Counted from the first letter of the stretch, positions 6,932-55,224 are shown. The stretch: DNA of 64,000 nucleotides from an uncultured Bacillales bacterium (GCA_948442255.1 CAOJRT010000002.1:8088-72087), one strand, 5' to 3'. The notes: generated from the sequence alone by a model not told the origin. Made by a program: numbers and translations.

Positions 6932-9900
6932 CTAAAATAAACTGAGTTGATTACTTTCTGACATATTGTCTAAACATCCTAATTCTTTTAATTTTTCTAA
7001 AGATGTATTATTTACTTTTCCTCGTTCTCTTAAATCTTGAATCGAAATAAATGGTCCCCCTTTACGCGCTTTTACAATCGCATCGGCAACGTTTTCTCCA
7101 AGTCCATCAAGGGCTCTAAATGGAATTATCAAACCTTTTTCATCTTCCGTAATGATAAATTTCTTCCCATCACTTTTATCCACATCTATATTTTTAAAAT
7201 AGAAACCTCTTTCACACATTTCAAGACAAAGTAAAAGTGTTTCGCGTATATCTAAATCTTTATTAGAGGCTTGATTTCCTTTGGTATCAATTTCATCAAT
7301 TTTCGCACGAATAGCATCTCCTCCTCTAACCATCGAAGCAATATCAAATTGATCACGCCGAATAGAAAGATAAGCACAGTAGTAAAGAATCGGATAATGA
7401 ACTTTAAACCACGCAATTCGGAAAGCACTCGTTACATAAGCAGTAGCATGCGCTTTTGGGAACATGTATTTTATCTTGCGACAAGACTCAATATACCATT
7501 CAGGAATATTTGCTTCTCGCATAGCCGCTGCATGATCTGCCCAAGTAGCAGGATCTTTACTTGGTTTGCCTTTACGAACAAACTCCATAATTTTAAATGC
7601 CTTGGCTGGTTTCATTCCCCATTGAATTAAATTAACCATAATATCATCACGACACCCTATAACATCTTTAAACGGAACTTCTATAACCCCTTCTTTATTA
7701 GGTGTACATAAATCTCTTGCATTTCCAAGCCATACGTCTGTACCATGTGATAACCCAGAAATTTTGATTAATTCGGCAAAAGTAGTTGGTTTTGTTTCTT
7801 CAAGCATACCAAGTAAGAAAGAAGTTCCAAATTCAGGAACACCTAGTGTTCCCGTTGGACAATATTTTCTTCCTTCTTTATCCACACTGCCTCGTAAACG
7901 ATAACGGTCAACTCCTAAAATCTCAGGACCAGTAAATATTTTCATCGTGTCTAAATCTCCTAAATCAATTGCCGTAACATCAAATTCCTTACCATGTGTA
8001 ATATAGGTAACTGCTAATTCCTGTAACATACGTAAAACAGTTGGATCATCGTGTCCTAGTATATCAAGTTTTAAAAGGTCCGCATCAATAGCATGATAAT
8101 CAAAGTGTGTTGTTCTCCAAGCACTCGTAGGGTCATCAGCAGGATATTGAAATGGTGTAAAATCCCAAATATCTTTATAACCTGGAACAACAACAATTCC
8201 TCCTGGATGTTGCCCTGTCGTACGTTTGACTCCCGTACATCCAACAGCGATACGTTCCACCTCAGGAACTCGAACAAAAGACTTAATAACACCCTTTTTC
8301 TTTAAATCATCTTTTCCTGTAACAGTAAGACCATAACTAGTAGCCTCCGTTTTTAAAATATCATGCAAGCGTTCTTCATAATACCCTTGAACATATCCAT
8401 AAGCTGTTTTATCGGCCACTGTACCAATCGTTCCAGCACGATACACATTATCTGTACCAAATAAAACTTTCGTATATTCATGAGCAGAAGCTTGATTATC
8501 TCCAGAAAAGTTAAGGTCAATATCAGGAACTTTTTCTCCAGCAAAACCTAAGAAGGTTGCAAAAGGCATATCATTTCCTTGGTGAATCATAATTTCACCA
8601 CATTTTGGACAAGCTTTCTCTGGCAAATCAAATCCTGAAGGATAATTTTCTGCATAAGAGACTCCCTCATCATCTTGAAATTCGCTATGCTGACACTTAG
8701 GACAATAATAATGAGCAGGTAAACCATTACATTCTGTAATACCCATCATACTTGCAACAAAAGAAGACCCTACAGAACCGCGTGATCCTACTAAATAACC
8801 ATCATCATTAGAATGTTTAACTAATTTTTGTGCAATTAAATAAATAACATCGAATCCCCCACCAATAATTCCTGTTAACTGGGCTTTTGCTTGTTCGATT
8901 GCTTCTTCATTCGTAAGTTCTGTCTCACTATTGCGTTTCACTTGTTCTTTTTTTAAAGCAATTACTCCATCATATCCACTCATGATAACATCATGTAGAT
9001 AAGGAGTAAACATAGCGTCTCGTTCCTCATCTGTTTTATCTGGATAAAGAAGAGTTAAATTCTCTTTTACTAAATCATTAATCTTATCCCCATAAAACTC
9101 TTGCGCTATACGCTCCTCAATATTAGGTGGAAGAGGATTTCCATACATGCTATGCGCTTTATCAAAAACCAAATCACGACAAGTTTCTTGTGAGTGTTCA
9201 ATAATAGGAGAATAAGGTTTATCTGGATAAACTACGACTTCAATATCTTCTAACTGCTCAATTATCTTATTTGGATTTTCAACAACGATTTCATGAATTA
9301 AATCAGCATCTTCCAAAAAGGCAAACTCTTCCTTCATTTCTTTTGTTGTTCTAAAAAATTGATTCGGAATATGTCCTTCCTGTGCAGCAACGGAATCATT
9401 ATAATATCCATTTAAAATATAAACATTATCTTGTTCTCTTACAATCCCTGCCACACTTAGCTTCCGTAACGAACTACTAACTGCTTTTAATTTTTCAGCT
9501 TCGCCATCTCTTCCTTTAAAGGAGTCCTCATAAGCGTTTTTTTTATCTGGAGCATATATAAAAGCTATATTTGTTGAAGTAATCGCTATTTTTTTTATCT
9601 TTGTCAATACATAAATGTATTTTAATACTTTTTGATCAACTTCATTTAATAAAACGCCTTGTGATTTTGCTTTTTCTACTACTTTGGCAATATTCTCTAA
9701 GTTTGTACAACGTTTACTAGAAGAGGCTAAATAACGCGCCAAAGGATGTCTTCCTTTTCCTGGGACATTTTGGTTCACAATAATCTCTCTATACAAACGA
9801 TCTTCAGGATGAATTTGATGTACATCACCTGTTGCTACAACCATTTTGCCGATCTTTTTAGCACAACGAATAATCTTTTTTAAGCAAGTATGCAAATGAT

Positions 9901-12736
9901 CTAAGGAATTAATATCATGCCCACGTAGCAAGTGCATATAGTTTTCTGGTGGTTGTACCTCAATGTAATCGTAAAACTCCATTGCTTTACATAGATCTTC
10001 ATCACATCTTGTTTCTGCTAAATAAAAAACTTCTCCATTTAAGCAAGCACTCCCAATAAATAACCCTTCTCTATTTTCTTCAATTAGCTTTCTCGGAATT
10101 CTAGCATTCCTTGTAATAAAATTAGTATTAGCATAAGACACAATCTTAAACATATTTTTTAATCCTGTCTTATTTTGTGCAATAAAGGTTACATGTTTTC
10201 CATTATCATATAAATTAGCCAGATGCTCTGAAAAAGTCTTACCAGGAATATTTTCATACATTTGTAAATAATCATCTTTACACCAAGGAAATTTCCATCG
10301 ATAATCCATAATACCATATTTTTCAAATGGATACCCTAAACTTTCTTCTACTTCTTCCCCTTCTTCAATAGGCTTTATAATATAATTTTTATAAGAAACT
10401 AAGTCCCCAATATGTTCTAACTTTTTAGGGCTATTGCGAAAACTAATTTCTTCTAATAATCCCAGATTATTTAAATCACTAATCTTTTTTACTCCCTTTA
10501 TTTGATTTAACATCTTAGAAAAAATATAACCTGTATTTTCGGAGTCAACATCTGCTCCATGGTGTTGCCCAACATATACATTTAAAGAAAGACTCTTTTC
10601 CCCAAAATCATCTTCTACTTTGACAATGATTTCATTTCCAGCAGGATGCAATTTTATATGCCCATCAAAGTCAAGCAAACGAACTCCATCAACCACTTCT
10701 ACATCTACTAGTATCTCTTCTGTTTTAGATGCTTTATGAATTGTATCTAAGTGATAAATGTTACGATATTTTTTAACCCTATTTTCTGAAGAAAAGTCGG
10801 TATCATAATACTCCTGTTTCTCTATTTTCAAAACTTCTTCCCCATCTACTAAAATCTTAGTAAACAAAGAAGCAATTTCACTATCTATAATAGCACCACT
10901 TACACCAGATTCATTAACAGCTTCATCATCTTCATCATCCGCTTCTCCTGTATCAATGCCATAAAACTTTCCTAATGCTTTTAAACTATGTTTTTTTAAA
11001 TCGCGATTAATAACTCTAGATAACATTAAAGTATCAATAATCGGATTCTTTAATTCTCCTAAATCGTATTTATAATAAGCCATATCCAACATGTTTTTAT
11101 CGAATCGAGCATTATGTGCAACAAGTGGCAAATTGCCAATCCACTCTTTAAAACGTTTCGTAACATTACATTCATTATCTGCCGATTTTACATCATCATC
11201 AGAAATTTCAGTTATCCGAGTAATCGCCTCATCAATATGATGTCCAGGATTGATTAATTCATCAAAGCGATCAACAACTTCTCCATTTTTTATTTTGACA
11301 CCACCAATTTCAATCATTGAATCTCCAATCCCAGGGTTAAAACCAGTTGTTTCTGTATCGAATACCACAAAGGTATTGCCGTCTATTTCTTCTTCTGTCG
11401 GATTAAAACAAACATGTAAGAAAGACTCACACATTTCTATTTCTGTTCCATATCCAGCTTTAAAAAATTTTAAATTTTTTTTCTCTTCCTCAGCATCCTG
11501 AATCATTTTTTCCATCTCAGCAATGCCTTCTCCATTTCCTGATGTTTTTATTTCTTCTAAGCTCGCTTTTAATTCATCTATTTTCGCTTGTGCTTTCTTC
11601 TTAAGCCCCTTGTTATAAGAAGCAACTTCTCCAAAGACATGAGGAAAAGATTGACAACAATCATGGTCAGTTATAGCAATACCAGCGTGACCCCACTCTA
11701 TTGCTTGCTTAACAAGTTTAACTTCATCACATACACCATCCATCTGACTCATCATCGTATGTGCATGTAATTCACATCTCTTTTCTTCTTCCTTATCTAT
11801 CCTCTTAATCGTAGGCACATTTTCTAATACTTCATAACTTCTAAAATTAAAGACTAAATCATCTGCAAATGTATCAAAACGAACTTGTCCTTTAAAATGA
11901 AACCATCCACTCTTTAATTCCTTAGATTTTGTAATAAAATCTTCTTCATCTTTTGCAAAAGACTTGGCAAGAATACTAGAAGTATTATCGCTTATTTTCA
12001 AAGTGATTAAATATAAATCTCTTCCATCTTTCGTCTTCAATTGATTAAATTCTGAACCAAAGATATATGCTTCTAAATTAACGTTATTTTCTTCCCTATC
12101 AATACTTCCGATAGTTACAACGCCTTCTCTAGAATAATCAACTTTTTTCTTGTTTCCCCATCCATTAGAATCATTCTTATAAGAAGATTCTTCCTCTTTC
12201 ACAATAGCAATTGGACGATTTTTGGCTTCCTCTATTTCTTCTTGGATTTTTTTCTCATTTTCTTTATTAAGAGCTGTTGTAATTTCCATCTCATAAAATC
12301 CCATAGCAACTAAACCTGATACAAGATTTTTTATTTCTTTTTTTAACATGTCTGCAATTTCACTACGCGAATCTAACTCAATGATAATAAAATCATCATC
12401 AATTGTAATATTTTTATTTTCTAAAGAAACCAAAGAAGGTCGTTTTAAAATTAAATCACTTAATAAAACTTTAAAAGCTTCCAAAATATCTTGATCGTCT
12501 ACATCATTATAAATAAAATGAACATGACAAGGATTCTCTCCACGAATGCCTTTTTTTGCACACTGTAATAAAGAAAATGTGGCTTTTGGAGATAAAGGCT
12601 TTTCGTTTTCGATAAACACATTAAAAGAATTATCTTTTTTATTTAGTATAACTTTCGAGATAGATGCTCCCTCAAAATCTTTATTTTCATCTGTAAAACC
12701 TATACTTTTTAAAAAATTTAGCATCTTCTCTTCCAT
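6932..12736 (-). CDS. polC: DNA polymerase III alpha subunit, PolC type, unusually long (1934 aa)
   Basis: PHP motif CELHAHTMMSQMDG. DEDD exonuclease FVVFDTETTG / HNARFD / HHGADVD. Zn finger HYYCPKCQH...CPKCG. Core GYLVGSRGSVGSS, PDIDLNFSG, GTLGVPEFGT. C-terminal NQLSLF. Several extra in-frame blocks (see findings). Confidence 0.97.
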   Translation of the reverse strand: MEEKMLNFLKSIGFTDENKDFEGASISKVILNKKDNSFNVFIENEKPLSPKATFSLLQCAKKGIRGENPCHVHFIYNDVDDQDILEAFKVLLSDLILKRPSLVSLENKNITIDDDFIIIELDSRSEIADMLKKEIKNLVSGLVAMGFYEMEITTALNKENEKKIQEEIEEAKNRPIAIVKEEESSYKNDSNGWGNKKKVDYSREGVVTIGSIDREENNVNLEAYIFGSEFNQLKTKDGRDLYLITLKISDNTSSILAKSFAKDEEDFITKSKELKSGWFHFKGQVRFDTFADDLVFNFRSYEVLENVPTIKRIDKEEEKRCELHAHTMMSQMDGVCDEVKLVKQAIEWGHAGIAITDHDCCQSFPHVFGEVASYNKGLKKKAQAKIDELKASLEEIKTSGNGEGIAEMEKMIQDAEEEKKNLKFFKAGYGTEIEMCESFLHVCFNPTEEEIDGNTFVVFDTETTGFNPGIGDSMIEIGGVKIKNGEVVDRFDELINPGHHIDEAITRITEISDDDVKSADNECNVTKRFKEWIGNLPLVAHNARFDKNMLDMAYYKYDLGELKNPIIDTLMLSRVINRDLKKHSLKALGKFYGIDTGEADDEDDEAVNESGVSGAIIDSEIASLFTKILVDGEEVLKIEKQEYYDTDFSSENRVKKYRNIYHLDTIHKASKTEEILVDVEVVDGVRLLDFDGHIKLHPAGNEIIVKVEDDFGEKSLSLNVYVGQHHGADVDSENTGYIFSKMLNQIKGVKKISDLNNLGLLEEISFRNSPKKLEHIGDLVSYKNYIIKPIEEGEEVEESLGYPFEKYGIMDYRWKFPWCKDDYLQMYENIPGKTFSEHLANLYDNGKHVTFIAQNKTGLKNMFKIVSYANTNFITRNARIPRKLIEENREGLFIGSACLNGEVFYLAETRCDEDLCKAMEFYDYIEVQPPENYMHLLRGHDINSLDHLHTCLKKIIRCAKKIGKMVVATGDVHQIHPEDRLYREIIVNQNVPGKGRHPLARYLASSSKRCTNLENIAKVVEKAKSQGVLLNEVDQKVLKYIYVLTKIKKIAITSTNIAFIYAPDKKNAYEDSFKGRDGEAEKLKAVSSSLRKLSVAGIVREQDNVYILNGYYNDSVAAQEGHIPNQFFRTTKEMKEEFAFLEDADLIHEIVVENPNKIIEQLEDIEVVVYPDKPYSPIIEHSQETCRDLVFDKAHSMYGNPLPPNIEERIAQEFYGDKINDLVKENLTLLYPDKTDEERDAMFTPYLHDVIMSGYDGVIALKKEQVKRNSETELTNEEAIEQAKAQLTGIIGGGFDVIYLIAQKLVKHSNDDGYLVGSRGSVGSSFVASMMGITECNGLPAHYYCPKCQHSEFQDDEGVSYAENYPSGFDLPEKACPKCGEIMIHQGNDMPFATFLGFAGEKVPDIDLNFSGDNQASAHEYTKVLFGTDNVYRAGTIGTVADKTAYGYVQGYYEERLHDILKTEATSYGLTVTGKDDLKKKGVIKSFVRVPEVERIAVGCTGVKRTTGQHPGGIVVVPGYKDIWDFTPFQYPADDPTSAWRTTHFDYHAIDADLLKLDILGHDDPTVLRMLQELAVTYITHGKEFDVTAIDLGDLDTMKIFTGPEILGVDRYRLRGSVDKEGRKYCPTGTLGVPEFGTSFLLGMLEETKPTTFAELIKISGLSHGTDVWLGNARDLCTPNKEGVIEVPFKDVIGCRDDIMVNLIQWGMKPAKAFKIMEFVRKGKPSKDPATWADHAAAMREANIPEWYIESCRKIKYMFPKAHATAYVTSAFRIAWFKVHYPILYYCAYLSIRRDQFDIASMVRGGDAIRAKIDEIDTKGNQASNKDLDIRETLLLCLEMCERGFYFKNIDVDKSDGKKFIITEDEKGLIIPFRALDGLGENVADAIVKARKGGPFISIQDLRERGKVNNTSLEKLKELGCLDNMSESNQLSLF

Positions 12737-16330: not shown

Positions 16331-16699
16331 TTAACTTTCTTCTAACAAAGAAGCTTTTACCTCTTCGCCTTCTTTTACTAGCTTAATCTTAAGACCATTT
16401 AAAGTCGCTTTACTATTTCTAGGATCAACGACATTCCCCTCTTGATTAACAGAAACATAATATTTACTTTCTACCAAATCTCTAACAGTAATAATTTGCA
16501 CCCCTTCTTGTTCCAAAGTAGAGGAATTCTTCCCATAGAGTTCTGCTTGTCGCAAGATAAGATAAGTAGTCTCTTCATAAATTTCCCCTGCATCATCTTT
16601 AAAAGCATTCGACGTACTAATAACAACTCCTAGGGTAATCACTCCTAAAAGGACAATAACAATTAATAATTCAACTGCCGAATAACCATTCTTTTTCAC
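16331..16699 (-). CDS. prepilin-type N-terminal cleavage/methylation domain protein (type IV pilin/pseudopilin-like)
   Basis: GTG start after GGTGA. N-terminus KKNG|YSAVELLIVIVLLGVITLG fits the class III signal (G / aromatic-x-x-x-E + hydrophobic helix). Confidence 0.75.
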   Translation of the reverse strand: MKKNGYSAVELLIVIVLLGVITLGVVISTSNAFKDDAGEIYEETTYLILRQAELYGKNSSTLEQEGVQIITVRDLVESKYYVSVNQEGNVVDPRNSKATLNGLKIKLVKEGEEVKASLLEES

Positions 16700-17854: not shown

Positions 17855-18640
17855 TCATTTCTTAATGTATTTACATTTTGGATAATTAGAACACCCAATG
17901 AATTTTCCATATTTTCCATTTTTTTCAACTAATTCATTACCACATTTTGGACATATTATACTATTTTCTAATTCTCTATTATTATTAATTTTAATACGAA
18001 TATCTTTCACATGCTGTTTTCTTAACGACTTATCTTCAATATTATTAGATATAATTATATTTTCTAATTCTTTTATATCATTATCAATAAGTAATTCTTC
18101 ATGTTTTAAAATTTCACTTTTTAAATAATCAACTTGTGTGACTATACTACTACTTTTAACATCAACCTTTGCTTGATTAGAAAAACAAATAATCGAAACA
18201 AAATATTTATCATCTACTTTAAGTAAATTTGATAAAGATTTTATATGGCCAAAATTTTGATGAATAGGATTTACAAAGTAGCTTTTATTTTTTCCTAAAT
18301 ATTGACACCATTTATTATCATATTCTTTTCCTTTAATCAAACCATAATAATTTTTCATTTCGATAACAAAAATTCCAAACCCTGATATAACTACATGGTC
18401 AATTTGATGAGTTCCTTTTTCATCTTTTATCATAATATCATTTAAAACTACATATTTATTTTTAGGTAATTTTTTTAATTCTAATTTTACCCAAAACTCT
18501 CCCATAAATCCTCTAAACTTTGGATAATATATTTTTAATATTATATATAATACTATTAAAACACTTGTTTCTAATAACAACATTGGATTATTTAAATACA
18601 CATTTATAATTCCTTCAATAAAACTTTTAATCATATCCAT
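17855..18640 (-). CDS. NERD domain protein with C-terminal topoisomerase-type C4 zinc ribbon
   Basis: 261 aa. N-terminal TM, NERD-like core (QIDHVVISGFGIFVIEMKNY), C-terminal CPKCGNELVEKNGKYGKFIGCSNYPKCKY. Confidence 0.8.
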   Translation of the reverse strand: MDMIKSFIEGIINVYLNNPMLLLETSVLIVLYIILKIYYPKFRGFMGEFWVKLELKKLPKNKYVVLNDIMIKDEKGTHQIDHVVISGFGIFVIEMKNYYGLIKGKEYDNKWCQYLGKNKSYFVNPIHQNFGHIKSLSNLLKVDDKYFVSIICFSNQAKVDVKSSSIVTQVDYLKSEILKHEELLIDNDIKELENIIISNNIEDKSLRKQHVKDIRIKINNNRELENSIICPKCGNELVEKNGKYGKFIGCSNYPKCKYIKK

Positions 18641-18672
18641 GAAATCACATCCATAATAATTATATCATGATT

Positions 18673-20241
18673 CTAAGCTAAATCATTAAAAGTAGTCTTA
18701 ATATTTATTGTTTTGTCTTCAAATATTTCAATTTTATCAATTAAATTAATTATTAATTCTCTACTTGGTTCTTTCATAGATAAAAATTTATTAATATATT
18801 CATCAATCATTTTATTTTTAGATTCCTCATTAATATTGTCATTAATACTATTATTTAATTCCGTGTATCTTTTTTGCTTTATATTTATTTCATTTTCTAA
18901 CTTAACTTTTACTCTTTCAAATTGTTCTTCAGTTATTTTTTTATTTAACTTATCAATATAAATAATATCTAAATTATCATTTATTTGCTTAATGTCGTTA
19001 GTTAGTCTTTCTAACTCTTTTTTATTATTTAATTTATTATCTTCAGTTAAATTATTTAATACATTATTTTTAACTTTATCTTTATTAATATAATTTAAGC
19101 AGATATTAGTTAATGAATTGATTATAACTTTCTCTAATTCATCATAGTTATTAGAATGAGTTGTACAAAGTTTTTGTTTCATATAAGTCCTATAATAATT
19201 GCAAATTGTATAACATCTATTATCTTTTTTTCTTCTGGATTGTATGGATATTCGATATCCACAATTACCACAATATAATAACCCATCTAATAAATGAATT
19301 TCTTTTTTTTCATTTCTTCCTTTATTTTTAGGTATTCTTTTTTGAACCTCATAAAATTTATCTTTTTCAATGATTGATTCATGAGTATTTTCCACAATTA
19401 TGTAATTATTAGGATTATTCTTAACAACCTTTTTTACCTTATAATTTATTTTACTTCTTCTATTTTGAACCATATCACCTATATACATTCTATTAGTTAA
19501 AATATCTCTTATAGTTTTTGAGTGCCACTCTCCATATTTTAAATTGTAATTACTCTTCCATTCAAAGTTATAATACTGAGCAGGTGTTTTTACTCCTTCA
19601 TTAGTTAATTGTTTGGCAATTTTAAAGAATGATAACCCATCTAAACACATATCAAATATTCTTTTAACAACACTTGCTTGTTCAATATTTATTACTAAAT
19701 GATTTTTATCATCTTTATCTTGATCATATCCAAACGGGGTTCTACCTCCTACCCATTTTCCTTCTTTCATTTTTGCTTTTAAACTAGATTTTATTTTTTT
19801 AGAAATATCTTTTGCATACATATCATTCATTATAGCTTTAAATGGTGCAATGTCATTATTAGAATTATCTAAAAATGTATCTATATTGTCAGTAACTGCA
19901 ATATATCTGACATTATGTTCGGGAAAATACTTTTCTATTAAATTCCCAGTTCCAATATAATCCCTACCTAATCTTGACATATCTTTTGTAATAACCATAT
20001 TTATTTTACCTGATTCAATATCATTTAATAATCTATTGAAATCTGGTCTATCAAAATTAGTCCCTGAATACCCATCATCAATATAAGTATCATAAACTCT
20101 TAAATTATTCTCTTTTACATATTGGAATAATAAACTCTTTTGATTTGTAATACTCTCACTCTCTAATGCTTTATCATCATCTTCTCTAGATAATCTTATA
20201 TAAAGTCCAACATTATATATCTTATTTAAACTCCCTAACAA
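18673..20241 (-). CDS. large serine recombinase (resolvase/invertase N-domain + recombinase domain + zinc ribbon + coiled coil)
   Basis: 522 aa. Catalytic region VGLYIRLSREDD...SITNQ, MVITKDMSRLGRDY. Recombinase domain GRTPFGYD. Zn ribbon LYCGNCGYR...CNYY. Long C-terminal coiled coil. Confidence 0.93.
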   Translation of the reverse strand: MLGSLNKIYNVGLYIRLSREDDDKALESESITNQKSLLFQYVKENNLRVYDTYIDDGYSGTNFDRPDFNRLLNDIESGKINMVITKDMSRLGRDYIGTGNLIEKYFPEHNVRYIAVTDNIDTFLDNSNNDIAPFKAIMNDMYAKDISKKIKSSLKAKMKEGKWVGGRTPFGYDQDKDDKNHLVINIEQASVVKRIFDMCLDGLSFFKIAKQLTNEGVKTPAQYYNFEWKSNYNLKYGEWHSKTIRDILTNRMYIGDMVQNRRSKINYKVKKVVKNNPNNYIIVENTHESIIEKDKFYEVQKRIPKNKGRNEKKEIHLLDGLLYCGNCGYRISIQSRRKKDNRCYTICNYYRTYMKQKLCTTHSNNYDELEKVIINSLTNICLNYINKDKVKNNVLNNLTEDNKLNNKKELERLTNDIKQINDNLDIIYIDKLNKKITEEQFERVKVKLENEINIKQKRYTELNNSINDNINEESKNKMIDEYINKFLSMKEPSRELIINLIDKIEIFEDKTINIKTTFNDLA

Positions 20242-20411
20242 TTTTTACCTCCTTCTAGAGATAAATAAGTACATGACGATGGTACCTCACTTTTTTTATT
20301 TTTACAAATCATTTGAATATATTTTTTAAGCTCTTTATTTAAAATTTTTATAAGAATATCATTTATATCATTATTTTCGTCATAAATATAATTAATTTTG
20401 TACTTACCCAT
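20235..20411 (-). CDS. small protein translationally coupled to the recombinase (possible accessory/directionality factor)
   Basis: 58 aa from ATG 20411 (GTGAGGTG upstream). Its stop overlaps the recombinase start by 7 nt. No recognisable family. Confidence 0.45.
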   Translation of the reverse strand: MGKYKINYIYDENNDINDILIKILNKELKKYIQMICKNKKSEVPSSCTYLSLEGGKNC

Positions 20412-20857
20412 TATTAAGCACCTCACTTAAATTTATGGATAAATTACTAATTTTAGTAATACTAAATTGAGTAATATACAAATTACGCATATATTTAGTA
20501 TTACTTATAAGCTCTCACTCCTAACATAAACATCATCTCCTTTTTGCATGATGCATGATAGCTCCACTAAGAAAGCGAGTCAAGTCTTAAACTATAGAAA
20601 ATTTTGTCTATCATCCTAAAAATATTCATAATTTAATGGGTTATGAAATAGCAGGATAAGAAGTTTGTGTATCAATACATAGTTTTCGTTTTGAAATAAA
20701 GAAAACTATATACACAATTCTTATTTTGCACTCGCAAAATTCAACCTATTTGGTAGGATGGTATCAAGGATAAGTCTAATAATAGCAATAATTTTAAGTA
20801 CAAAAAAATCATCCTATTGTCTAATTTTTACTAGATTTAGTAGGATGATAAATTTTT

Positions 20858-21610
20858 TTAATTGTTTTCTTCTATTTCAAAATTTAATAATTCATCACAA
20901 GTCTTTTCAAATAAATCTTGCTCGTGTTTTATGGTATCAATTAAGAACATTTTATCACTAGTATATTCTTTTAAACCTCTCATATAATAAGGTTTATCAT
21001 CATCTAATACAATGAATGGCATAATGTTATTTCTTAAGCATTCTTTAAACATAATAATTCTACCAACTCTCCCATTGCCATCTCCAAAAGGGTGAATTTT
21101 CTCAAAATTATAATGAAAATCAATAATGTCTTCTAAAGTAATATTAGTTTTTGAATTGTATTCAACAAGTAATTTATCAATTTCTTTTTCTACATCTTTT
21201 GGTGCAGTAGTATTGATAACATTAACAAGACCTATCATATTTGGAACTACTTTAAATCCCCCAACATTGTATCTAGGATTTTCTTCATCGCTAGTATTTC
21301 TTTTTAATATTTTATTCATTTCAATAATAATTTCTTTTGATAACTCATTATCAACATGATCTAACATATAATCAAATAATTTAAAATGATTTTTAGATTC
21401 TGTTAAATCATCTAATTTTATCAAATCATCACTTTTAGGAATAAAACTTGATGTATCAAATATGGCCTCAGTCTGATCACTAGTTAACCTACTACCTTCA
21501 ATTTTATTTGAATTATAAGAAAAATTAACTTGAGAATAATGATAGATATTACCTTTAAATTTTGATTCTTTTTGTTTGATTAATTCCTTTTTAATTTTAC
21601 TTATATCCAT
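20858..21610 (-). CDS. Fic family protein (AMPylase-type, with N-terminal inhibitory motif)
   Basis: Start at ATG 21610 (GGAGGA 9 nt upstream). Fic motif HPFGDGNGRVGR. N-terminal SNKIEG matches the (S/T)xxxE(G/N) auto-inhibition helix. Confidence 0.9.
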   Translation of the reverse strand: MDISKIKKELIKQKESKFKGNIYHYSQVNFSYNSNKIEGSRLTSDQTEAIFDTSSFIPKSDDLIKLDDLTESKNHFKLFDYMLDHVDNELSKEIIIEMNKILKRNTSDEENPRYNVGGFKVVPNMIGLVNVINTTAPKDVEKEIDKLLVEYNSKTNITLEDIIDFHYNFEKIHPFGDGNGRVGRIIMFKECLRNNIMPFIVLDDDKPYYMRGLKEYTSDKMFLIDTIKHEQDLFEKTCDELLNFEIEENN

Positions 21611-21611
21611 A

Positions 21612-22520
21612 TTACATGTCCTCCAATGAAATATTAATACCTGACTCACAATGTTTATAAAATTCTAAAGCACTTAAATGATATTTTGGCTTTTTATAAT
21701 TATATATACAGAGGTTATTTTTATTATAATTATTATTTAGTTCATATTTAATAAATTTATCTCTTACATCAATTAATAAATCTTTTAAAAAGTTATATTC
21801 GTGTATACCTTTAAATCTTTCCCACGAATGTTCAAACCAATAATATTTATTATTTTTTTCAAAAGTTAAATACGTATGAGTAGGACATTTGTCATTATCA
21901 TAATGAACTATAAAATATGTTTTAATATTCCAATCATTTCCTTTAAAATAATATCTTTCTAGTTCTACTTGATCCCAACATACGCCAACTTTATTTTTAA
22001 TAATTTCTTTAGGACTTTGTAAAATATAATTATCTGAATAAGATTCATCAACTATTGTATGTTTATTATTGCTTGTGTCAACCCATCCATATTCGATATT
22101 TTCCATTAAGTTCATAATTTCAAACTCGTTATAAAATTGCCAAATATTAAGTTGTCCTTTTGCTTTTATAGGTTTTATAGGTTTAATATCTTCAAGTATC
22201 CAAGCATATCTTCCTTCTTCATATTTACCACAAATATATTCTTGATAATTATTTTTTTTCATTTCTTCTACATAATCTTTTGTCATATATACACAATCAA
22301 CTAAAGTACATTTGCATATTATATAACCAAAATTAAGTGGTATATTATCTACGAGTGACATAAATTCAGTATCTTCCTTCCAATCTTTAGGAATAGCAGT
22401 AGCACCAGCATGAATATATAATTCACCCCTATAAGTTGTTTTCCAACTTCTTGTCTCAATTAACTTCTTTTTTTCTTTTATCAAAGTAGCACAAGGTTCT
22501 GTTAAACTTAATACCTTCAT
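21612..22520 (-). CDS. ASCH (PUA-like) domain fused to a transglutaminase/papain-like C-terminal domain
   Basis: Start at ATG 22520 (AGGTGA upstream). N-terminus MKVLSLTEPCATLIKEKKKLIETRSW is ASCH-like. C-terminus has GVCWDQ...PTHTYL...WFEHS, a Cys-His-acid arrangement. Confidence 0.6.
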   Translation of the reverse strand: MKVLSLTEPCATLIKEKKKLIETRSWKTTYRGELYIHAGATAIPKDWKEDTEFMSLVDNIPLNFGYIICKCTLVDCVYMTKDYVEEMKKNNYQEYICGKYEEGRYAWILEDIKPIKPIKAKGQLNIWQFYNEFEIMNLMENIEYGWVDTSNNKHTIVDESYSDNYILQSPKEIIKNKVGVCWDQVELERYYFKGNDWNIKTYFIVHYDNDKCPTHTYLTFEKNNKYYWFEHSWERFKGIHEYNFLKDLLIDVRDKFIKYELNNNYNKNNLCIYNYKKPKYHLSALEFYKHCESGINISLEDM

Positions 22521-22626
22521 TAAAATCACCTATAAACATTATATCATACAAAAAGACATTTCTTATTAAAACGCCTTTCATTTTGTACTTATTTCTCTCT
22601 TTATATTTTTGGTCTATCATAAATTA

Positions 22627-30678: not shown

Positions 30679-32175
30679 CTACTCCGTCATTACATAAGGG
30701 GATTCACTTGTACCATCTCCACTTAGATAAGAAATTCCTGATTTTAATGATACAACAGGTCTAACACCAATACTATTCGAATTCCAATAAAATGTTACTT
30801 GTCGCCCAAAGACAATCATTCCCGAACGAGAACCAAAATCTAAAGAATGAGGAGACATCGTCCAACAATTTAAATTAGTAAACAAATAATAATGAGGATT
30901 AATCCCTGTATCGGTTGCACTCTTCTCTCCCCTTCCCCCTGCTAAAATCATTTCATCTGATGTAATAAGTCCAACAGGATATGTAAGCTTACCATTTCCT
31001 ATATCACTACTTACTGTAAAGACATCTTCCAGATTAGTAGCTCCTAATTTAACAGAAGTATTTGGCACATTTTCTCCCATAGTACCACCACTTCCCCAAA
31101 TACGTATTCTAGGGGCAAAATAAATAGTTGGGGCAGTCGCCTTAATATGATCTCGTTCATTATAGAATGGTGTGTCTTCTAAATACTTTTGGTAATCTAC
31201 TAAATTAGCAAGAAACCATTCGTCTATATAACTTTTAATAGCAGAATCTTCTGTATTATCATCATACATATATCCAACATATTTGGCATCATTCTGTTCT
31301 ACATTAAATGGAGAATTCCCTATTTGAGATGCTCCTGCCGTATTATTACAAACTCCTTTTTTTGGAACTCCATTATAAATAAGTTTCATTCCTCCTGTAG
31401 TTGTTGTTCGGATGATTTTCCAACAAAAATTAGCAAATAAAACATTGTTATTTTGTACATCTCCACGATAATAATAAATGGGGTAAGCATACGTAGCTGT
31501 CCTTGTTAATGTATAAACTCCTTTTCCATTCGTGTCACTTGAAAAGTCTCCAAAGTTGATTTCCAAATCACTTTGTGTTTCTTTTACTATTTGCTCATAT
31601 AAAGAATTTTTATTTCTTATAATTCCATCATTATTCTTTTGAATATAGTTTATTCTTCCTTCTAACGTTAGATTTGTACTAATTGTAGGATAAAGACTTT
31701 CATGCAAATCTTTTATATAGACAATTACTTTTAAAGTCTCTTTTTCTCCTGATGCTAGAACATCATTTTGCTTTATTTCTGCCCCATCTTTATAAGTGAT
31801 TCGATATTCTAAATATTTCTTCTGTGCAATTGTTAAAGGAGTCTTATAAATACTTTCAACTTGGGCATCTATAGTTCCTTTATTTACCACATCTATGTAA
31901 AATTCATAGTATTCATTTGGTTGACTAAAGGTTACTGTAAGAGAAACACTTGTTTTATCACTACTAATGACAGGTGGGATAGCACTCACACTCCCACTAC
32001 GTACTACAACATTTTCTAAATGTATATCCCAAGTCAGTTTATCCACATTTGCTACGATATCTAATTTTAAACTACTAGATAAATAAGCATACCCAATACT
32101 CATGCACAACAAAAGTATTAGGAGGCTTAAAATTAGCATTCTTTTTTTAGAAGATGCCCTTTTTATACTTCTCAT
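30679..32175 (-). CDS. secreted/surface protein, paralog A (498 aa)
   Basis: N-terminal anchor/signal ...LLILLLCMSIGYAYLSS, central FANFCWKIIRTTTTGG block, C-terminal IGVRPVVSLK...GDGTSESPY. Paralog of 53667..55136. Confidence 0.8.
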   Translation of the reverse strand: MRSIKRASSKKRMLILSLLILLLCMSIGYAYLSSSLKLDIVANVDKLTWDIHLENVVVRSGSVSAIPPVISSDKTSVSLTVTFSQPNEYYEFYIDVVNKGTIDAQVESIYKTPLTIAQKKYLEYRITYKDGAEIKQNDVLASGEKETLKVIVYIKDLHESLYPTISTNLTLEGRINYIQKNNDGIIRNKNSLYEQIVKETQSDLEINFGDFSSDTNGKGVYTLTRTATYAYPIYYYRGDVQNNNVLFANFCWKIIRTTTTGGMKLIYNGVPKKGVCNNTAGASQIGNSPFNVEQNDAKYVGYMYDDNTEDSAIKSYIDEWFLANLVDYQKYLEDTPFYNERDHIKATAPTIYFAPRIRIWGSGGTMGENVPNTSVKLGATNLEDVFTVSSDIGNGKLTYPVGLITSDEMILAGGRGEKSATDTGINPHYYLFTNLNCWTMSPHSLDFGSRSGMIVFGRQVTFYWNSNSIGVRPVVSLKSGISYLSGDGTSESPYVMTE

Positions 32176-32209
32176 ATATTACACTCCTATATTTTATTTT
32201 TATACTTTT

Positions 32210-32241
32210 ATTTTACCCCCCCCCCCGTAGTAAAATGTCAA
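32210..32241 (-). promoter_or_regulatory. candidate promoter with homopolymeric G tract in the spacer
   Basis: Minus strand TTGACA (32241..32236), 20-nt spacer TTTTACTAC+G11, TAAAAT (32215..32210). AGGAG RBS and ATG 32175 lie downstream. Confidence 0.5.
32216..32226. repeat. C11/G11 homopolymer
   Basis: Eleven consecutive C on the plus strand in an otherwise very AT-rich intergenic region. Confidence 0.95.
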
Positions 32242-32256
32242 TAAAAAAGAAACAAA

Positions 32257-33810
32257 TTATTTTGCTTCTTCTTGTGCTCTGGTTTCACGAATGACAGTAA
32301 TTTTAATTGTTCCAGGATATTGCATTTCCTTTTCAATCTTTTCTTTCATTTCACGTGCAATTTTATAACTTTGTGTATCATCAATTTCATCAGGTTTTAC
32401 CATAACGCGAACTTCTCTACCTGCTTGCATAGCAAAAGTCTTTTCGACACCTTCAAAACTATTTCCAATCGTCTCTAGTTGTTCTAACCTCTTTATATAG
32501 TTTTCTAAAGAGTCATTTCTAGCCCCTGGCCTTGCTGCAGATAAAGTATCAGCAATCTGTACTAGTGCTGCAATAATACTAGTAGCTTCTTCATCTCCAT
32601 GATGCGACTTTATCGCATTAATAACGACTGAATCCTCATGATATTTTTTACAAACTTCTTCCCCTAATTCAACATGGCTTCCTTCCACTTCAAAATCAAT
32701 AGCTTTCCCAATATCATGTAGTAAACCAGCTCTTTTTGCTAAAGCAACATTCTCCCCTAGTTCCGAAGCCATTAAACCTGTAAGATTAGCAACTTCTATT
32801 GAATGCTGTAAAGCATTTTGACCATAACTAGTTCTATAATTCAATTTACCTATTAAAGTAATTAACTTAGGATCCACCTTAGATAAACCAAGTTCATAAC
32901 AAGTATCATTTCCTAATTTCATAATAGTATTATTCATATCATTACATACTTTATCATAAACTTCTTCTATTCTAGCAGGGTGGATTCTTCCATCATGAAT
33001 TAAGGTTTCTATTGTTATTTTAGCAATCTCTCTTCTTAAAGGATCAAAAGAAGAAATAACAATTGCTTCTGGTGTATCATCAATAATTAAATCTACACCT
33101 GTTACGGATTCTATTGTACGAATATTTCTTCCTTCTCTACCAATTAAACGACCTTTCATCTCATCATTAGGTAATGTGATTGTACTTACCGTTTGTTCAC
33201 TAGTTACATCGTTTGCATAACGTTGCATGCTATGAACGATTAAATTTTTTGCTGTCTCATTCGCTGTCAATTTTGCCTCTGTTTCACGTTCTTTTACATA
33301 CTCCGCTATTTCCAAAGACATATTTTCTTCCACACGCTTCATAATTAAGTCATGTGCCTTTTCTTTTGAAAATTTAGCAATTGCTTCTAATTGCTCCATT
33401 TCATTTTTTAGTAATTCATCAATTTTAGCTTCTTTTTCTTGGAGTTCTTTTTGTGATTTAAGTAAATTATTATCTTTTTGATCAAGTAAAGAATCACGAT
33501 TCTGTAAGATTTCTTCTCTCTTATCTAAGCTTTTCTCTCTTTGAAGTAATCTTTCTTCAGATTCCTTTATTTCTGCCTTTTTTTCTTTAATCTCTTTATC
33601 CGTTTCTTGTTTTAAACGATAAGACTCTTCTTTTAATTCAGCTAAGGAATCTCTTTTTTGTTTCTCAGCATCATGTTTCGCTTGTTCAATTAATTTACTA
33701 GCTTTATTTTCAGTAGCTTTATTACGCATAAAGTTCACTACTGCCATAATAATTATACCTAAAATTATTCCAACAAGAAGTGCTAAAACGACAAGCAAAG
33801 TTTTGTCCAT
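32257..33810 (-). CDS. rny: ribonuclease Y
   Basis: 517 aa. N-terminal TM, coiled coil, KH domain (GRLIGREGRNIR), HD domain (LLHDIGKA). Confidence 0.95.
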   Translation of the reverse strand: MDKTLLVVLALLVGIILGIIIMAVVNFMRNKATENKASKLIEQAKHDAEKQKRDSLAELKEESYRLKQETDKEIKEKKAEIKESEERLLQREKSLDKREEILQNRDSLLDQKDNNLLKSQKELQEKEAKIDELLKNEMEQLEAIAKFSKEKAHDLIMKRVEENMSLEIAEYVKERETEAKLTANETAKNLIVHSMQRYANDVTSEQTVSTITLPNDEMKGRLIGREGRNIRTIESVTGVDLIIDDTPEAIVISSFDPLRREIAKITIETLIHDGRIHPARIEEVYDKVCNDMNNTIMKLGNDTCYELGLSKVDPKLITLIGKLNYRTSYGQNALQHSIEVANLTGLMASELGENVALAKRAGLLHDIGKAIDFEVEGSHVELGEEVCKKYHEDSVVINAIKSHHGDEEATSIIAALVQIADTLSAARPGARNDSLENYIKRLEQLETIGNSFEGVEKTFAMQAGREVRVMVKPDEIDDTQSYKIAREMKEKIEKEMQYPGTIKITVIRETRAQEEAK

Positions 33811-36514: not shown

Positions 36515-36868
36515 AATAAAATTTAATAAGCCACGTTCTGTTCCCTAAAAGGGCGGCAAACATTTATCTACCTAATCAACATTAGGTCCTTTGCATCGTT
36601 CTTTATTCCTAGCAAAGACTCCCCTACCAATATTTGGGTTTCTCACTCGCGGGGTTTACCTCGTTCCACTCTAAAGATTACTCTCTAGTCTCGTCTCTTT
36701 GGCACTTTTATATCTAATCTAATCCCTTAAGGATTATTTCAAAGCCGTTAGTAAAAACTACCTAAGGTTATGTCTTCCCTTAGCACGAACACTACAATCA
36801 TCTCAGATTGTGTGAGCTTGGACTTTCCTCTATATAACAAAATATATAGCGTTTACCTAAAATTTTAT
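36515..36868 (-). ncRNA. rnpB: RNase P RNA (type B), ends approximate
   Basis: Minus strand contains GAGGAAAGTCC (P4 5' strand), GTGCCAAAGAGACGAG...AGAGTGGAACGAGGTAAACCCCGCGAGTGAGAAACCCAAAT...GGTAGGGGA and ...GGGAACAGAACGTGGCTTA (P4 3' strand), closely paralleling B. subtilis rnpB. Adjacent to gpsB as in Bacillus. Confidence 0.88.
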
Positions 36869-40838: not shown

Positions 40839-41774
40839 TTATTTTATTTTGTCTAACAAACTTATATATTCGGCAAATTCTTTCTTTTTTGTAATTGAAA
40901 AAACATATAAAATTCTTCCTCGTAAACTTTGAAGATAAAAACTTTTATCTTGTATAGAAAGTTTAGCAATATGTGAATCAATGCCATACTTATTTATATA
41001 ATACATTTCTTGACGAACCTTCTTTAAATAACTTCTTTTTATATTAACCTTTTGATTAACTACTAATCCTGTAACCAATAAAGCTCTGTTTTGATAGATT
41101 ACTTTAGTCTTCTCTCTATTAAGAAAAAGGCCTTTTTTCTTAAGTTTCTTTTTAACAAAAGCAATTAATTCTTTATCGTCAAAAATATCTCCTGAAAAAG
41201 TCATATCATCACTATATCTTGTATAAACAAGACCTTTTTCTAAAGCATACTTATCCATTTCATAATCAAAATCACGCATAAATAGATTTGAAATGGCAGG
41301 ACTAGTAGGTGCTCCCTGTGGCAAAAAATCAGCATAGCAACACAAGTTAGTTAATAAAACACCTACACTTTTAGGATAATAAGAAAAACAGCATTTATAA
41401 ACATCTAAAAAAGAAATACGATCAAAAAAATGGGCAATATCTAACTTTACAATTTTTTTCTTACCCACATGAGGAAGTGCATTTGCATAAATACCATTTC
41501 CTTTTTTATAAGCTGTTGCTACTGGAGTTATCTTTTTTTCTGCTAAAATAGTATCTAATATTCTTCGTTGTGCAAATTTCAGCATTTTACTTGGCTCATA
41601 AATAGTTCTTACTTTTCCATTTCTTTTTCTTATATAAAAAATCTTATAATTCTCAACAATATGATTACTCAACATATATAATTTTTGAAAATATTCTTTT
41701 TCCGATTTAGTTTCTTCCACTAAAAAAAGAGAAAGTAGAAACAAACGAATTTCTTTTATGACTTCTTCATTCAT
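40839..41774 (-). CDS. retron-type reverse transcriptase
   Basis: 311 aa. RTIYEPSKMLKFAQRRIL, NALPH, LDIAHFFDRI, LPQGAPTSPAISN, YTRYSDDMTFS (YxDD), retron-specific LLVTGLVVN. AGGAGA RBS. Confidence 0.9.
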   Translation of the reverse strand: MNEEVIKEIRLFLLSLFLVEETKSEKEYFQKLYMLSNHIVENYKIFYIRKRNGKVRTIYEPSKMLKFAQRRILDTILAEKKITPVATAYKKGNGIYANALPHVGKKKIVKLDIAHFFDRISFLDVYKCCFSYYPKSVGVLLTNLCCYADFLPQGAPTSPAISNLFMRDFDYEMDKYALEKGLVYTRYSDDMTFSGDIFDDKELIAFVKKKLKKKGLFLNREKTKVIYQNRALLVTGLVVNQKVNIKRSYLKKVRQEMYYINKYGIDSHIAKLSIQDKSFYLQSLRGRILYVFSITKKKEFAEYISLLDKIK

Positions 41775-53666: not shown

Positions 53667-55136
53667 TTAATTAGAAATAACATAAGGAGATTGAACACTA
53701 CCATCTCCTGAAGAGTAAAGACTTCCTTTTTTTAGTGATAAAACAGGTCTTACTCCTCCTAAAGTACCATCCCAATAGCCATCTCCTATTCCGAATCCAT
53801 AGCCATCTTTAACAGCTAAAGCGGCTATCATAACAGGTATACCACCATGACTATATCGAGAGGGAGAAAGAGTATAATAATGGGAACTAGATGCTAAAAG
53901 CGATCCAGCCATCAAAAGTTCATCACTTGTTATTAGTCCAACTGGATAAGTTAAAGCTCCATTTCCTATTTCACTACTTACTGTAAAAATATCTTCTTTA
54001 TTAGTCGCGCCAAGCTTTATAGTCGCTCGTTTAACAGCATCAGCTTCTTCAGAGAAAACTAATCCCCATATACGAATCGAAGGAGCAAAGTTAAAAGGAT
54101 AATTATCTCCTACTGCTCCATCTCTTTCATTATAAAAAGGAGTATCTTCTAAGTAATCTAAGTAATTAAGCAAATTGTTTCTAAACCACTCATCTACAAC
54201 CCCTTTTATAGTAGAGTCTTTTGTATTATTATCATACATATAACCAACGTACTTTGCATCACCTTGCCCTGTATTAAATACACTTTTTCCTATCTCGGTT
54301 GCATCCCCTGTATTATTACATATGCCATTATTTGGAATTCCATTATAGATAAGCTTCACGCCTCCTGTATTAGTAGTACGTATGATCTTCCAACAGAAGT
54401 TGGCGAATATAACATTATTGTTTTCTACTGCTCCTCGATAGTAATAAATAGGTTCCCCATCTTTTTCTATCTTTGTTAGTTTGTATACACCTACTCCATT
54501 TTTTTCAGTTCCAAGATTTAGATTCACATCACTTTCAGCCACACTACTTAATACACGTGATAGTACTTTTCTTTTCCTTAGAACTCCATTTCCATCTTCT
54601 TGCACATAGTTTATTTGACATGTTAAATTAATTGTTTCTCCTTTGCTTGGAAGTTCTTCAGCTTTAATAATTCTATTAAATTGAATCAATACTTTTAATT
54701 GTTCTTTTTCACCAACTTTTAAAGTATCTCCTCTTTGAATTTCTACACCATCTGCATAAGTAACATGGAAAGTTAAATAATGACTTTGTGTTTCAGTTAA
54801 AATCGTTTTCACAAAAGACTCCACTCTTGCATCTATCGACCCACTATTTACTACATCCACATAAAACTCATAAAACTCTCCTGGTTCTCCAAAGGTAAAA
54901 TTCAAAGAGAGACTTGTTTTATCACTTCCTATTACTGGATTCCCCTCTATACTTCCTTCTCTTACACTAATATTTTCAAAGTGAACGTCCCAAATATTGG
55001 CACCAATCTTAGCGATTGTATTTATTTTCATATTTTCCGAAAGAATGGCATACCCAATACCCATGCACAAAAAAATTATTAGAAGTATTAAAGATAAAAC
55101 CTTCTTTTTAGAAGTTACTCTATTTAAACTTTTCAT
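53667..55136 (-). CDS. secreted/surface protein, paralog B (489 aa)
   Basis: Collinear with 30679..32175 (N-terminal ...FLCMGIGYAILSE, FANFCWKIIRTTNTGG, LEDTPFYNERD, GGVRPVLSLK...GDGSVQSPY). Promoter-like TTGCTA-17-TATAAT at 55200..55172. Confidence 0.8.
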   Translation of the reverse strand: MKSLNRVTSKKKVLSLILLIIFLCMGIGYAILSENMKINTIAKIGANIWDVHFENISVREGSIEGNPVIGSDKTSLSLNFTFGEPGEFYEFYVDVVNSGSIDARVESFVKTILTETQSHYLTFHVTYADGVEIQRGDTLKVGEKEQLKVLIQFNRIIKAEELPSKGETINLTCQINYVQEDGNGVLRKRKVLSRVLSSVAESDVNLNLGTEKNGVGVYKLTKIEKDGEPIYYYRGAVENNNVIFANFCWKIIRTTNTGGVKLIYNGIPNNGICNNTGDATEIGKSVFNTGQGDAKYVGYMYDNNTKDSTIKGVVDEWFRNNLLNYLDYLEDTPFYNERDGAVGDNYPFNFAPSIRIWGLVFSEEADAVKRATIKLGATNKEDIFTVSSEIGNGALTYPVGLITSDELLMAGSLLASSSHYYTLSPSRYSHGGIPVMIAALAVKDGYGFGIGDGYWDGTLGGVRPVLSLKKGSLYSSGDGSVQSPYVISN

Positions 55137-55198
55137 ATACTACACTCCCAAATTATTTCTATTCTATCTTTATTATACCTCTTACGTGGCAAAATAGC

Positions 55199-55224
55199 AA
55201 AAAAAAAACTCAACAAATGAGTTT
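55199..55224 (-). terminator. rho-independent terminator of the infC-rpmI-rplT operon
   Basis: Minus strand AAACTCA-TTTGT-TGAGTTT followed by a T10 run, 5 nt after the rplT stop. Confidence 0.8.

Follow-up and report, generated by a model that had tools for sequence, protein, structure and literature searches.

Promoter repeats as transcriptional switches in known systems

Repeat-driven contingency loci are known mainly from pathogens, which include Neisseria, Haemophilus, Campylobacter, Helicobacter, and Mycoplasma, and the phase variation of gut commensals is known mainly from the invertible promoters of Bacteroides. The opc gene of N. meningitidis carries a poly-C tract in its promoter spacer, which exerts the same kind of volume control over a surface gene as the poly-G spacer of porA. 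A change of one nucleotide in the porA tract of N. meningitidis alters both the length of the spacer and the level of the transcript, and the tract thus regulates by degree and is not purely an on/off switch (PMC3899988). Likewise, the number of TA repeats at hifA/hifB of Haemophilus influenzae alters the spacing of -35 and -10 and thereby switches the fimbrial genes (PMC3899988). Spacer tracts also switch transcription of vlp in M. hyorhinis, maa2 in M. arthritidis, and vmm in M. mycoides (PMC2268961), and Vlp expression is combinatorial (PMC2268961; references in PMC11868660). The T-tract in the promoter of H. pylori sabA acts as a rheostat (PMC4081817, PMC4611032). The T tract in the vpma promoter of M. 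agalactiae has no role in variation (PMC2268961); a homopolymer beside a promoter alone is no proof of function.

The putative promoter of gene A

The window, that is, the whole stretch of DNA analysed, comprises 64,000 nt from an uncultured Bacillales bacterium (GCA_948442255.1 CAOJRT010000002.1:8088-72087), and positions are counted from its first letter. A run of eleven G residues lies in it upstream of gene A and probably serves as a slippage-driven switch in the spacer of a putative sigma-A-type promoter of this gene. The elements of the locus and of the second family member in the window, paralog B, are as follows.

32244-32273, minus strand: AU-rich 13-bp hairpin, with a U run as its 3' arm, overlapping the rny stop codon (-10.9 kcal/mol)
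32236-32241, minus strand: -35 hexamer TTGACA, 6/6 matches to the consensus, kept in all cassette-bearing paralogs
32227-32235, minus strand: non-repeat part of the spacer, TTTTACTAC, homologous to TTTTGCCAC in paralog B and to TTTTATTAC/TTTTGTCAT in other paralogs
32216-32226, minus strand (C11 on the plus strand): variable element, a homopolymer of 11 G residues in the window and of 9 or 10 in other samples
32210-32215, minus strand: -10 hexamer TAAAAT, 5/6 matches; TAAAAT/TACAAT/TATAAT/TATACT among the paralogs
32176-32209, minus strand: predicted short 5' UTR with a conserved AAAAGTA box and a Shine-Dalgarno sequence
30679-32175, minus strand: gene A, 498 aa, with a signal/anchor helix at the N-terminus, followed by a beta-sandwich and a C-terminal domain
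55172-55200, minus strand: promoter of paralog B, TTGCTA-17 nt-TATAAT, tract-less, with GTAAGAGG filling the tract position
53667-55136, minus strand: paralog B, 489 aa, 50% identical to A

The sequence-only reading from which this analysis started had described a G11 tract between near-consensus hexamers 20 nt apart, followed by AGGAG and the ATG at 32175, and direct reading of the minus strand confirms this arrangement. The Shine-Dalgarno AGGAG (32184-32188) lies inside the 34 nt that separate the -10 from the ATG, and the last G of the tract is the G at -14 of the promoter. The spacer measures 17 nt with G8, 18 with G9, 19 with G10, and the 20 nt of the window with G11. Near-consensus housekeeping promoters of the same window have spacers of 17 nt (rny) and 18 nt (recA and a divIVA-like gene), and a promoter scan scores the G9 allele as promoter-like, with 11/12 matches and an 18-nt spacer. 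The same reading had called a G/C run of 11 nt unexpected in such AT-rich DNA. It is the only such run in the 64 kb, for which base composition (30.4% G+C) predicts about 7e-4 runs of 11 or more; the second-longest G or C run has 5 nt, and runs of 6-10 do not occur.

Several other roles were considered for this region. The tract does not form part of a terminator, as a complementary C run is absent and the rny hairpin sits upstream of the -35. A downstream TATAAA is accompanied by neither a -35 nor a TG and was rejected as an alternative promoter. An upstream TTTACT, which as a -10 would let transcription start within the G run, has no conserved -35. An Rfam gathering scan of the window returned only RNase P (36522-36864) and no known RNA element in the intergenic region.

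That the G run has a function independent of its length, as a protein-binding site, a structure-forming element, or a site of reiterative transcription start from a different upstream promoter, is very improbable. The runs are always of G and never of C on the gene strand, which hints at a strand-specific role other than spacing, and a 7-bp inverted repeat (ATTTTAC...GTAAAAT) flanks the tract of gene A. However, this repeat is not conserved in paralogs, where the -10 reads TACAAT, and it was rejected as an operator for that reason. Paralog homology begins only about 6 nt before TTGACA and includes no conserved upstream -35/-10 pair, no Rfam family matches, and the length of the run is free from 7 to 11. 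The strand bias, too, may simply reflect an excess of G over C on the coding strand or the need for a G at -14.

Genomic context

Gene A is preceded by rny, which encodes RNase Y (32257-33810, stop codon TAA at 32259-32257) and is itself preceded by recA and pgsA, and is followed by convergent genes for a VanY-type carboxypeptidase and RNase J. Other genes of the window encode PolC, DnaE, PolA, a class A PBP, a PASTA kinase, SRP components, and RNase P class B. With this gene content, the window is core chromosome from a low-GC bacterium of the Bacilli that has a cell wall.

The hairpin at the rny stop codon is far more stable than expected (z = -4.6), and none of 200 shuffled sequences folded as well. 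A consensus terminator scan misses it because it holds too few G-C pairs. The folding prediction makes it probable that the hairpin is a weak intrinsic terminator, which would insulate gene A from rny read-through. It probably ends most rny transcription, and gene A would hence need a promoter of its own.

The window has several other features of note. The ORF of the PolC-type DNA polymerase III alpha subunit (6932-12736, minus strand) has 1934 aa, roughly 500 aa above the usual length, and the division of its PHP domain match into two separate parts suggests that it contains a large insertion or an intein-like element. Ribosomal protein L20 (55229-55771, minus strand, 180 aa) carries a C-terminal DNA/RNA-binding domain of the Rho_N/SAP/HeH type, a fusion found in other assemblies as well. 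A small ORF (16331-16699, minus strand) with a prepilin-type N_methyl motif looks like a pseudopilin or competence pilin. The region 17855-22529 (minus strand) encodes a NERD nuclease with a Top1-type zinc ribbon, a large serine recombinase (18673-20241), a Fic protein, and an ASCH/transglutaminase-like protein, and is possibly a mobile island. A stand-alone reverse transcriptase of the RVT_1 type (40839-41774, minus strand, 311 aa) adjoins a HhH-GPD glycosylase gene; since the window has no pair of template and variable repeats, a diversity-generating retroelement was rejected and a retron-like element is likelier. An ORF of 711 aa (61552-63687, minus strand) has no Pfam match and contains an 18-nt in-frame tandem repeat array at 62546-62664, and the neighbouring ORF of 622 aa (56718-58586) is likewise without family assignment.

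Tract-length variation between assemblies

The locus was retrieved from about a dozen ENA metagenome assemblies by exact look-up of the RNase Y and gene A proteins; an exact-locus pattern scan of the metagenome_contigs collection gave no match. A homopolymer of about 7-8 nt or more was taken as long enough to slip, a length exceeded by the G11 of the window and by the G9-G10 found elsewhere. The lengths at locus A are as follows.

G9, four samples: ERZ15143657, ERZ14864010, ERZ14867592, ERZ14864669
G10, five samples: ERZ14864678, ERZ14864022, ERZ14863989, ERZ15043454, ERZ14867579
G11: the window

Length polymorphism between populations had been set beforehand as a test of the switch, and its outcome is positive, with G9, G10, and G11 in near-clonal strains. 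The loci compared have 99.65-100% identity with the window, and no indel in their alignment falls outside the tract. Three loci without a single SNP relative to the G11 window carry G9 (L003) or G10 (L006 and L008), so that length is decoupled from the SNP haplotype and the tract changes faster than point mutations accumulate. Control runs of T10, T8, and A10 around paralog B are the same in the window and three assemblies, two of which come from samples with G9 at locus A. Near-identical strains differ at four tracts in all, namely those of three gene loci and of a tandem downstream cassette. The confinement of indels to the tract, the SNP-independent lengths, and the invariance of the T10 and A10 runs support the earlier proposal of slipped-strand phase variation.

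The lengths at locus A are those of consensus contigs from low-coverage (3-12x) Illumina assemblies, which raises the question of whether there is one true length that homopolymer and two-colour poly-G errors, PCR stutter, or the choices of assemblers have blurred. Junk poly-C occurs at contig ends at or near tracts (L011, L014, L016, and L184, the last with C52), contig L007 has an error-riddled region with clustered substitutions around positions ~330-360, and contigs often break at G tracts; hence, some length calls may be technical. Such errors as the source of the differences as a whole are nevertheless distinctly unlikely. The nine clean assemblies divide into four with G9 and five with G10, a split that is hard to explain by error alone as wrong consensus calls in half of the cases should be rare, and the control runs do not vary. 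At the paralog P0007, lengths differ at higher coverage too (G8/G9 at 24x and G7/G8 at 33x). The breakage of contigs is partly biological, since A and P0011 have a cassette of about 35 identical nt in common across the tract, and contig L005 indeed runs from the upstream region of A into a cassette of the TACAAT type. The sequence-only reading had also named an assembly artefact as a possible origin of the tract itself, which is present in every independent assembly spanning the site and is therefore not a one-off error. Technical error would in any case touch only the polymorphism and leave the promoter geometry and the family-wide recurrence of tracts unaffected. In practical terms, MAGs of this lineage break or are mis-called at G tracts, and tract lengths are reliable only when taken from reads.

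Strains differ by few SNPs, most of which cluster within the opening ~55 nt of gene A and at position -4 relative to its ATG (32179, 32158, 32156, 32138, 32133, and 32123; region 32123-32179), and a few others are scattered over the rest of gene A and the sequence downstream. Several kb upstream (rny, recA, and pgsA) are invariant except for the tract and the error-like contig L007.

Promoter cassettes of the paralogs

The sequence-only reading had assigned to paralog B an ordinary TTGCTA-17-TATAAT promoter without a tract, which is found at 55200-55172, and had concluded that only one copy would be variable. The latter holds inside the window; elsewhere, at least five further paralogs carry a tract-bearing cassette. 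The cassettes compare as follows.

Gene A: prefix TTTTACTAC, G9-11, -10 TAAAAT, spacer 18-20
P0002: TTGACA, prefix TTTTGTCAT, G7, -10 TACAAT, spacer 16
P0003: prefix TTTTATTAC, G10, -10 TACAAT, spacer 19
P0011: prefix TTTTACTAC, G9 or G10 (differs between samples), -10 TACAAT, spacer 18/19
P0007: prefix TTTTATTACCGA, CGA-G7 or CGA-G8, -10 TACAAT, spacer 19/20
Tandem gene downstream of P0007: prefix TTTTAATACGAA, GAA-G8 or GAA-G9, -10 TAAAAT, spacer 20/21

The cassettes of the paralogs thus hold G7-G10 in spacers of 16-21 nt, and three of these tracts vary between samples. The tract-less paralogs B and P0012, the latter with GAAAAAAAG at the tract position, both have a spacer of exactly 17 nt. 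The upstream regions of gene A, paralog B, P0002, P0003, P0007, the gene downstream of P0007, and P0011 were aligned; the corresponding protein identity of 57-68% comes from an alignment of four full-length proteins, because the contig ends within the gene downstream of P0007. The homology sets in about 6 nt ahead of the -35 and reaches the ATG, with unrelated sequence farther upstream, and conserves the -35, the -10, the AAAAGTA box, and the Shine-Dalgarno. This homology, the 17-nt spacers of the tract-less copies, and the scan score of the G9 allele give a good probability that TTGACA/TAAAAT is a real promoter.

The promoter and the first 90 nt of coding sequence, which correspond to the signal-peptide region, are 82-98% identical among the cassette paralogs, and the gene bodies are mostly 63-70% identical. 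A conserved cassette for expression and export joined to divergent mature parts is, at the level of sequence, the signature of variable surface-protein families. P0003 and P0007 (L097 and L179) are 96-100% identical over the first 600 coding nt and 69% thereafter, a mosaic that points to exchange among members of the family by recombination or gene conversion. When locus A, P0011, and P0003 were compared for coverage, the values were 13.0x and 12.4x in ERZ14863989 and 11.3x against 10.5-10.9x in ERZ14864022, which suggests that P0011 and P0003 belong to the genome of locus A.

Tracts in distant relatives

Unbiased family-profile scans yielded 156 loci (659 kb) of other species, with roughly 28-61% identity. 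These loci contain 14 G/C runs of at least 7 nt, all of them G on the gene strand, and 11 of the 14 lie within 200 nt upstream of the start of a family gene, a zone accounting for 3.8% of the sequence. A naive binomial calculation puts this enrichment at 7e-14, to be read with the fact that orthologous loci are not independent and represent about seven distinct promoter lineages. Examples include the following promoters.

L086: TTGAAA-ATC-G8-TATTA-TAAAAT
L092: TTGACA-TTC-G7-AAAATA-TATACT, with G8 in the diverged orthologue L107
L081: TTGACT-T-G10-TAGTTATGG-TAAAAT
L106, L149, L158, L161, and L172: TTAAAA-T-G9/10-...-TAGAAT

The presence of G tracts in about seven promoter lineages implies that the device was either kept or has arisen repeatedly across the family. 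An intragenic frameshift switch was considered for L106, L149, L158, L161, and L172 and rejected: in no simulated allele from G7 to G12 does the small upstream ORF run on into the family gene, and these tracts, too, are therefore upstream and non-coding.

Two further sites have a different arrangement. In L059, from a MAG of Ca. Scybalousia intestinigallinarum (DVKF01000001.1), a G9 at 175-183 lies inside an apparent signal-peptide coding region (…LLGGG / VSYAYFS…), the halves of which are out of frame as assembled and would be joined by G8 or G11. This site, which is at a contig end and where a clear start codon was not found, could represent the switch in a translational (frameshift) form. 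In L049, a G10 at 1796-1805 follows a tiny signal-peptide-like ORF (MKKSYNDMLTLSLLGGGAK*), and a terminator hairpin stands between it and the family gene, which is 110 nt farther downstream; the site may be the remnant of another family member.

The product of gene A

The C-terminal domain of protein A ends in the motif WT(M/L)SP...GVRPV(V/I)SL...SGDG...PY. An AlphaFold (AF2) model built from 26 homologues (mean pLDDT 70) shows an N-terminal helix at 5-35 that is at first basic and then hydrophobic; a beta-sandwich follows at about 50-180, and the C-terminal domain is mixed. The helix and the beta-sandwich make it plausible that the protein is exported and surface-exposed. Searches of protein A against Pfam, NCBIfam, PDB sequences, and, with Foldseek, PDB structures gave no significant match. 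The sequence G-Y-A-Y-L-S after the hydrophobic segment resembles a SipW-type signal; no NCBIfam or Pfam match to the TasA/camelysin type (SipW-cognate signal, Peptidase_M73) was obtained for protein A, and Foldseek aligned the TasA fibre 8aur with E = 0.067 only.

At least 1577 homologues are present in the protein collection, the named ones being entered as 'hypothetical protein [Bacilli bacterium]' from gut MAGs, and single MAGs hold more than 15-20 copies. The family is hence expanded and uncharacterised. Proteins A and B do not match DUF6273 (PF19789) even at E <= 1, and only in distant homologues, such as P0029, is there a match, limited to the final ~45 model positions (E = 8.5e-6), so that the relation of the family to DUF6273 is transitive and partial.

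A proposed promoter-spacer switch

In the proposed mechanism, slipped-strand mispairing during replication would add G residues to, or remove them from, a hypermutable repeat in the spacer. The number of G residues would set the distance between -35 and -10 and thereby the strength of the promoter, such that transcription of gene A would be stronger at G8-G9 and weak or off at G10-G11, in a manner that is heritable but reversible. Switching would be independent in each tract-bearing paralog, and constitutive expression would be expected of B and other copies that lack a tract and have an unchanging spacer of 17 nt. As several paralogs have a tract-bearing cassette of their own, a population could display different combinations of them. 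We infer that slippage may occur at a high rate within populations, that transcription would start at this promoter, and that expression would depend on tract length. The G at -14 provided by the tract could support some initiation independent of the -35, which would blunt the switch; such a role would also account for the invariable presence of G, and not C, on the gene strand.

The predicted optimum, G8 with its 17-nt spacer, was never seen at locus A. Since most cassettes measure 18-21 nt, it may be that the majority of copies are usually silent or weakly expressed, or else that the rule of 17 nt does not apply here, and a mostly-off family and decaying promoters fit these lengths equally well. 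This leads to the possibility that the tract is hypermutable without being used as a switch: the over-long spacer would have disabled a decaying paralog promoter, at which changes in length are neutral noise, and gene A would be silent or expressed only through rny read-through or -35-independent initiation. Spacers of only 18-20 nt at locus A, and of 18-21 nt in most paralogs, agree with such decay, which the two interrupted tracts (CGA-G7/8 and GAA-G8/9) and the weakened Shine-Dalgarno (ATGAG) of the paralog downstream of P0007 also resemble, and in the T tract of vpma there is a known case of a tract devoid of function (PMC2268961). However, gene A is intact (498 aa) in every assembly, and the tract keeps the same promoter position in paralogs with gene bodies that are 63-70% identical, which decay would not maintain. 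Independent promoter architectures in distant species carry a tract as well. The G9 allele of four samples gives an 18-nt spacer like those of the recA and divIVA-like promoters of the window, and the terminator-like hairpin stands between rny and the gene A promoter. Neutral decay is on these grounds unlikely, and a spacer switch that acts on gene A is the preferred reading.

Comparison with known systems

Mollicutes are relatives of these Bacilli, and Vlp is thus the phylogenetically nearest precedent for the spacer switch. It is also the closest known system in organisation: like Vlp of M. hyorhinis, gene A belongs to a multigene family in which several paralogs have tract-bearing promoters of their own, a conserved 5' region with the signal peptide, and divergent mature parts (PMC2268961; references in PMC11868660). 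The two differ in that the Vlp tract is poly-A and the tract here is poly-G, and there is no sequence homology between the proteins. Vlps are lipoproteins with size variation through in-frame repeats, whereas the Cys24 of gene A is not conserved (S in P0002 and P0012), the LLL before it is not lipobox-like, and no tandem repeats were found in the gene A coding sequence. The host here, unlike that of the Vlp system, has cell-wall genes (class A PBP and PASTA kinase).

With porA and opc the locus has in common a homopolymeric G/C tract between -35 and -10, which are here those of a predicted promoter. It differs from them in its occurrence in AT-rich, Gram-positive-type gut Bacilli, in an unrelated uncharacterised family, and in a cassette that is common to many paralogs; moreover, the tract here is on the long side of the optimum (18-20 nt), and that of porA extends from 17 nt downwards. 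The hifA/hifB switch, unlike locus A, consists of a dinucleotide repeat in a bidirectional promoter of a Gram-negative pathogen. Campylobacter jejuni and Helicobacter pylori resemble the present case in that their genomes are AT-rich and the long G/C runs, which are rare there, are markers of surface-related genes subject to phase variation (PMC4081817, PMC4611032). The tracts of C. jejuni are mostly intragenic frameshift switches and that of sabA is upstream of the -35, in contrast to a tract within the promoter spacer, between the hexamers.

A search of the literature on phase variation in RF39 or uncultured Bacilli found nothing relevant. If true, the switch of gene A would represent repeat-driven phase variation in an uncultured gut commensal, the family proteins would be candidate targets of immune or phage pressure, and spectra of tract length would offer a metagenomic read-out for testing the claim. 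More tentatively, but quite possibly, the walled gut Bacilli related to Mollicutes possess a lineage-wide contingency system, with a large exported family in which promoter and signal peptide form a conserved cassette, the DUF6273-like binding ends diverge, many copies have a poly-G spacer tract, and expression is combinatorial in a Vlp-like manner. In that case, commensal Firmicutes would vary their surface through repeats, beside invertons, as a major strategy that has so far escaped notice, and one readable directly from metagenomes. The mechanism itself is a known one, of the porA, opc, and Vlp kind; the lineage and the uncharacterised protein family are new for it.
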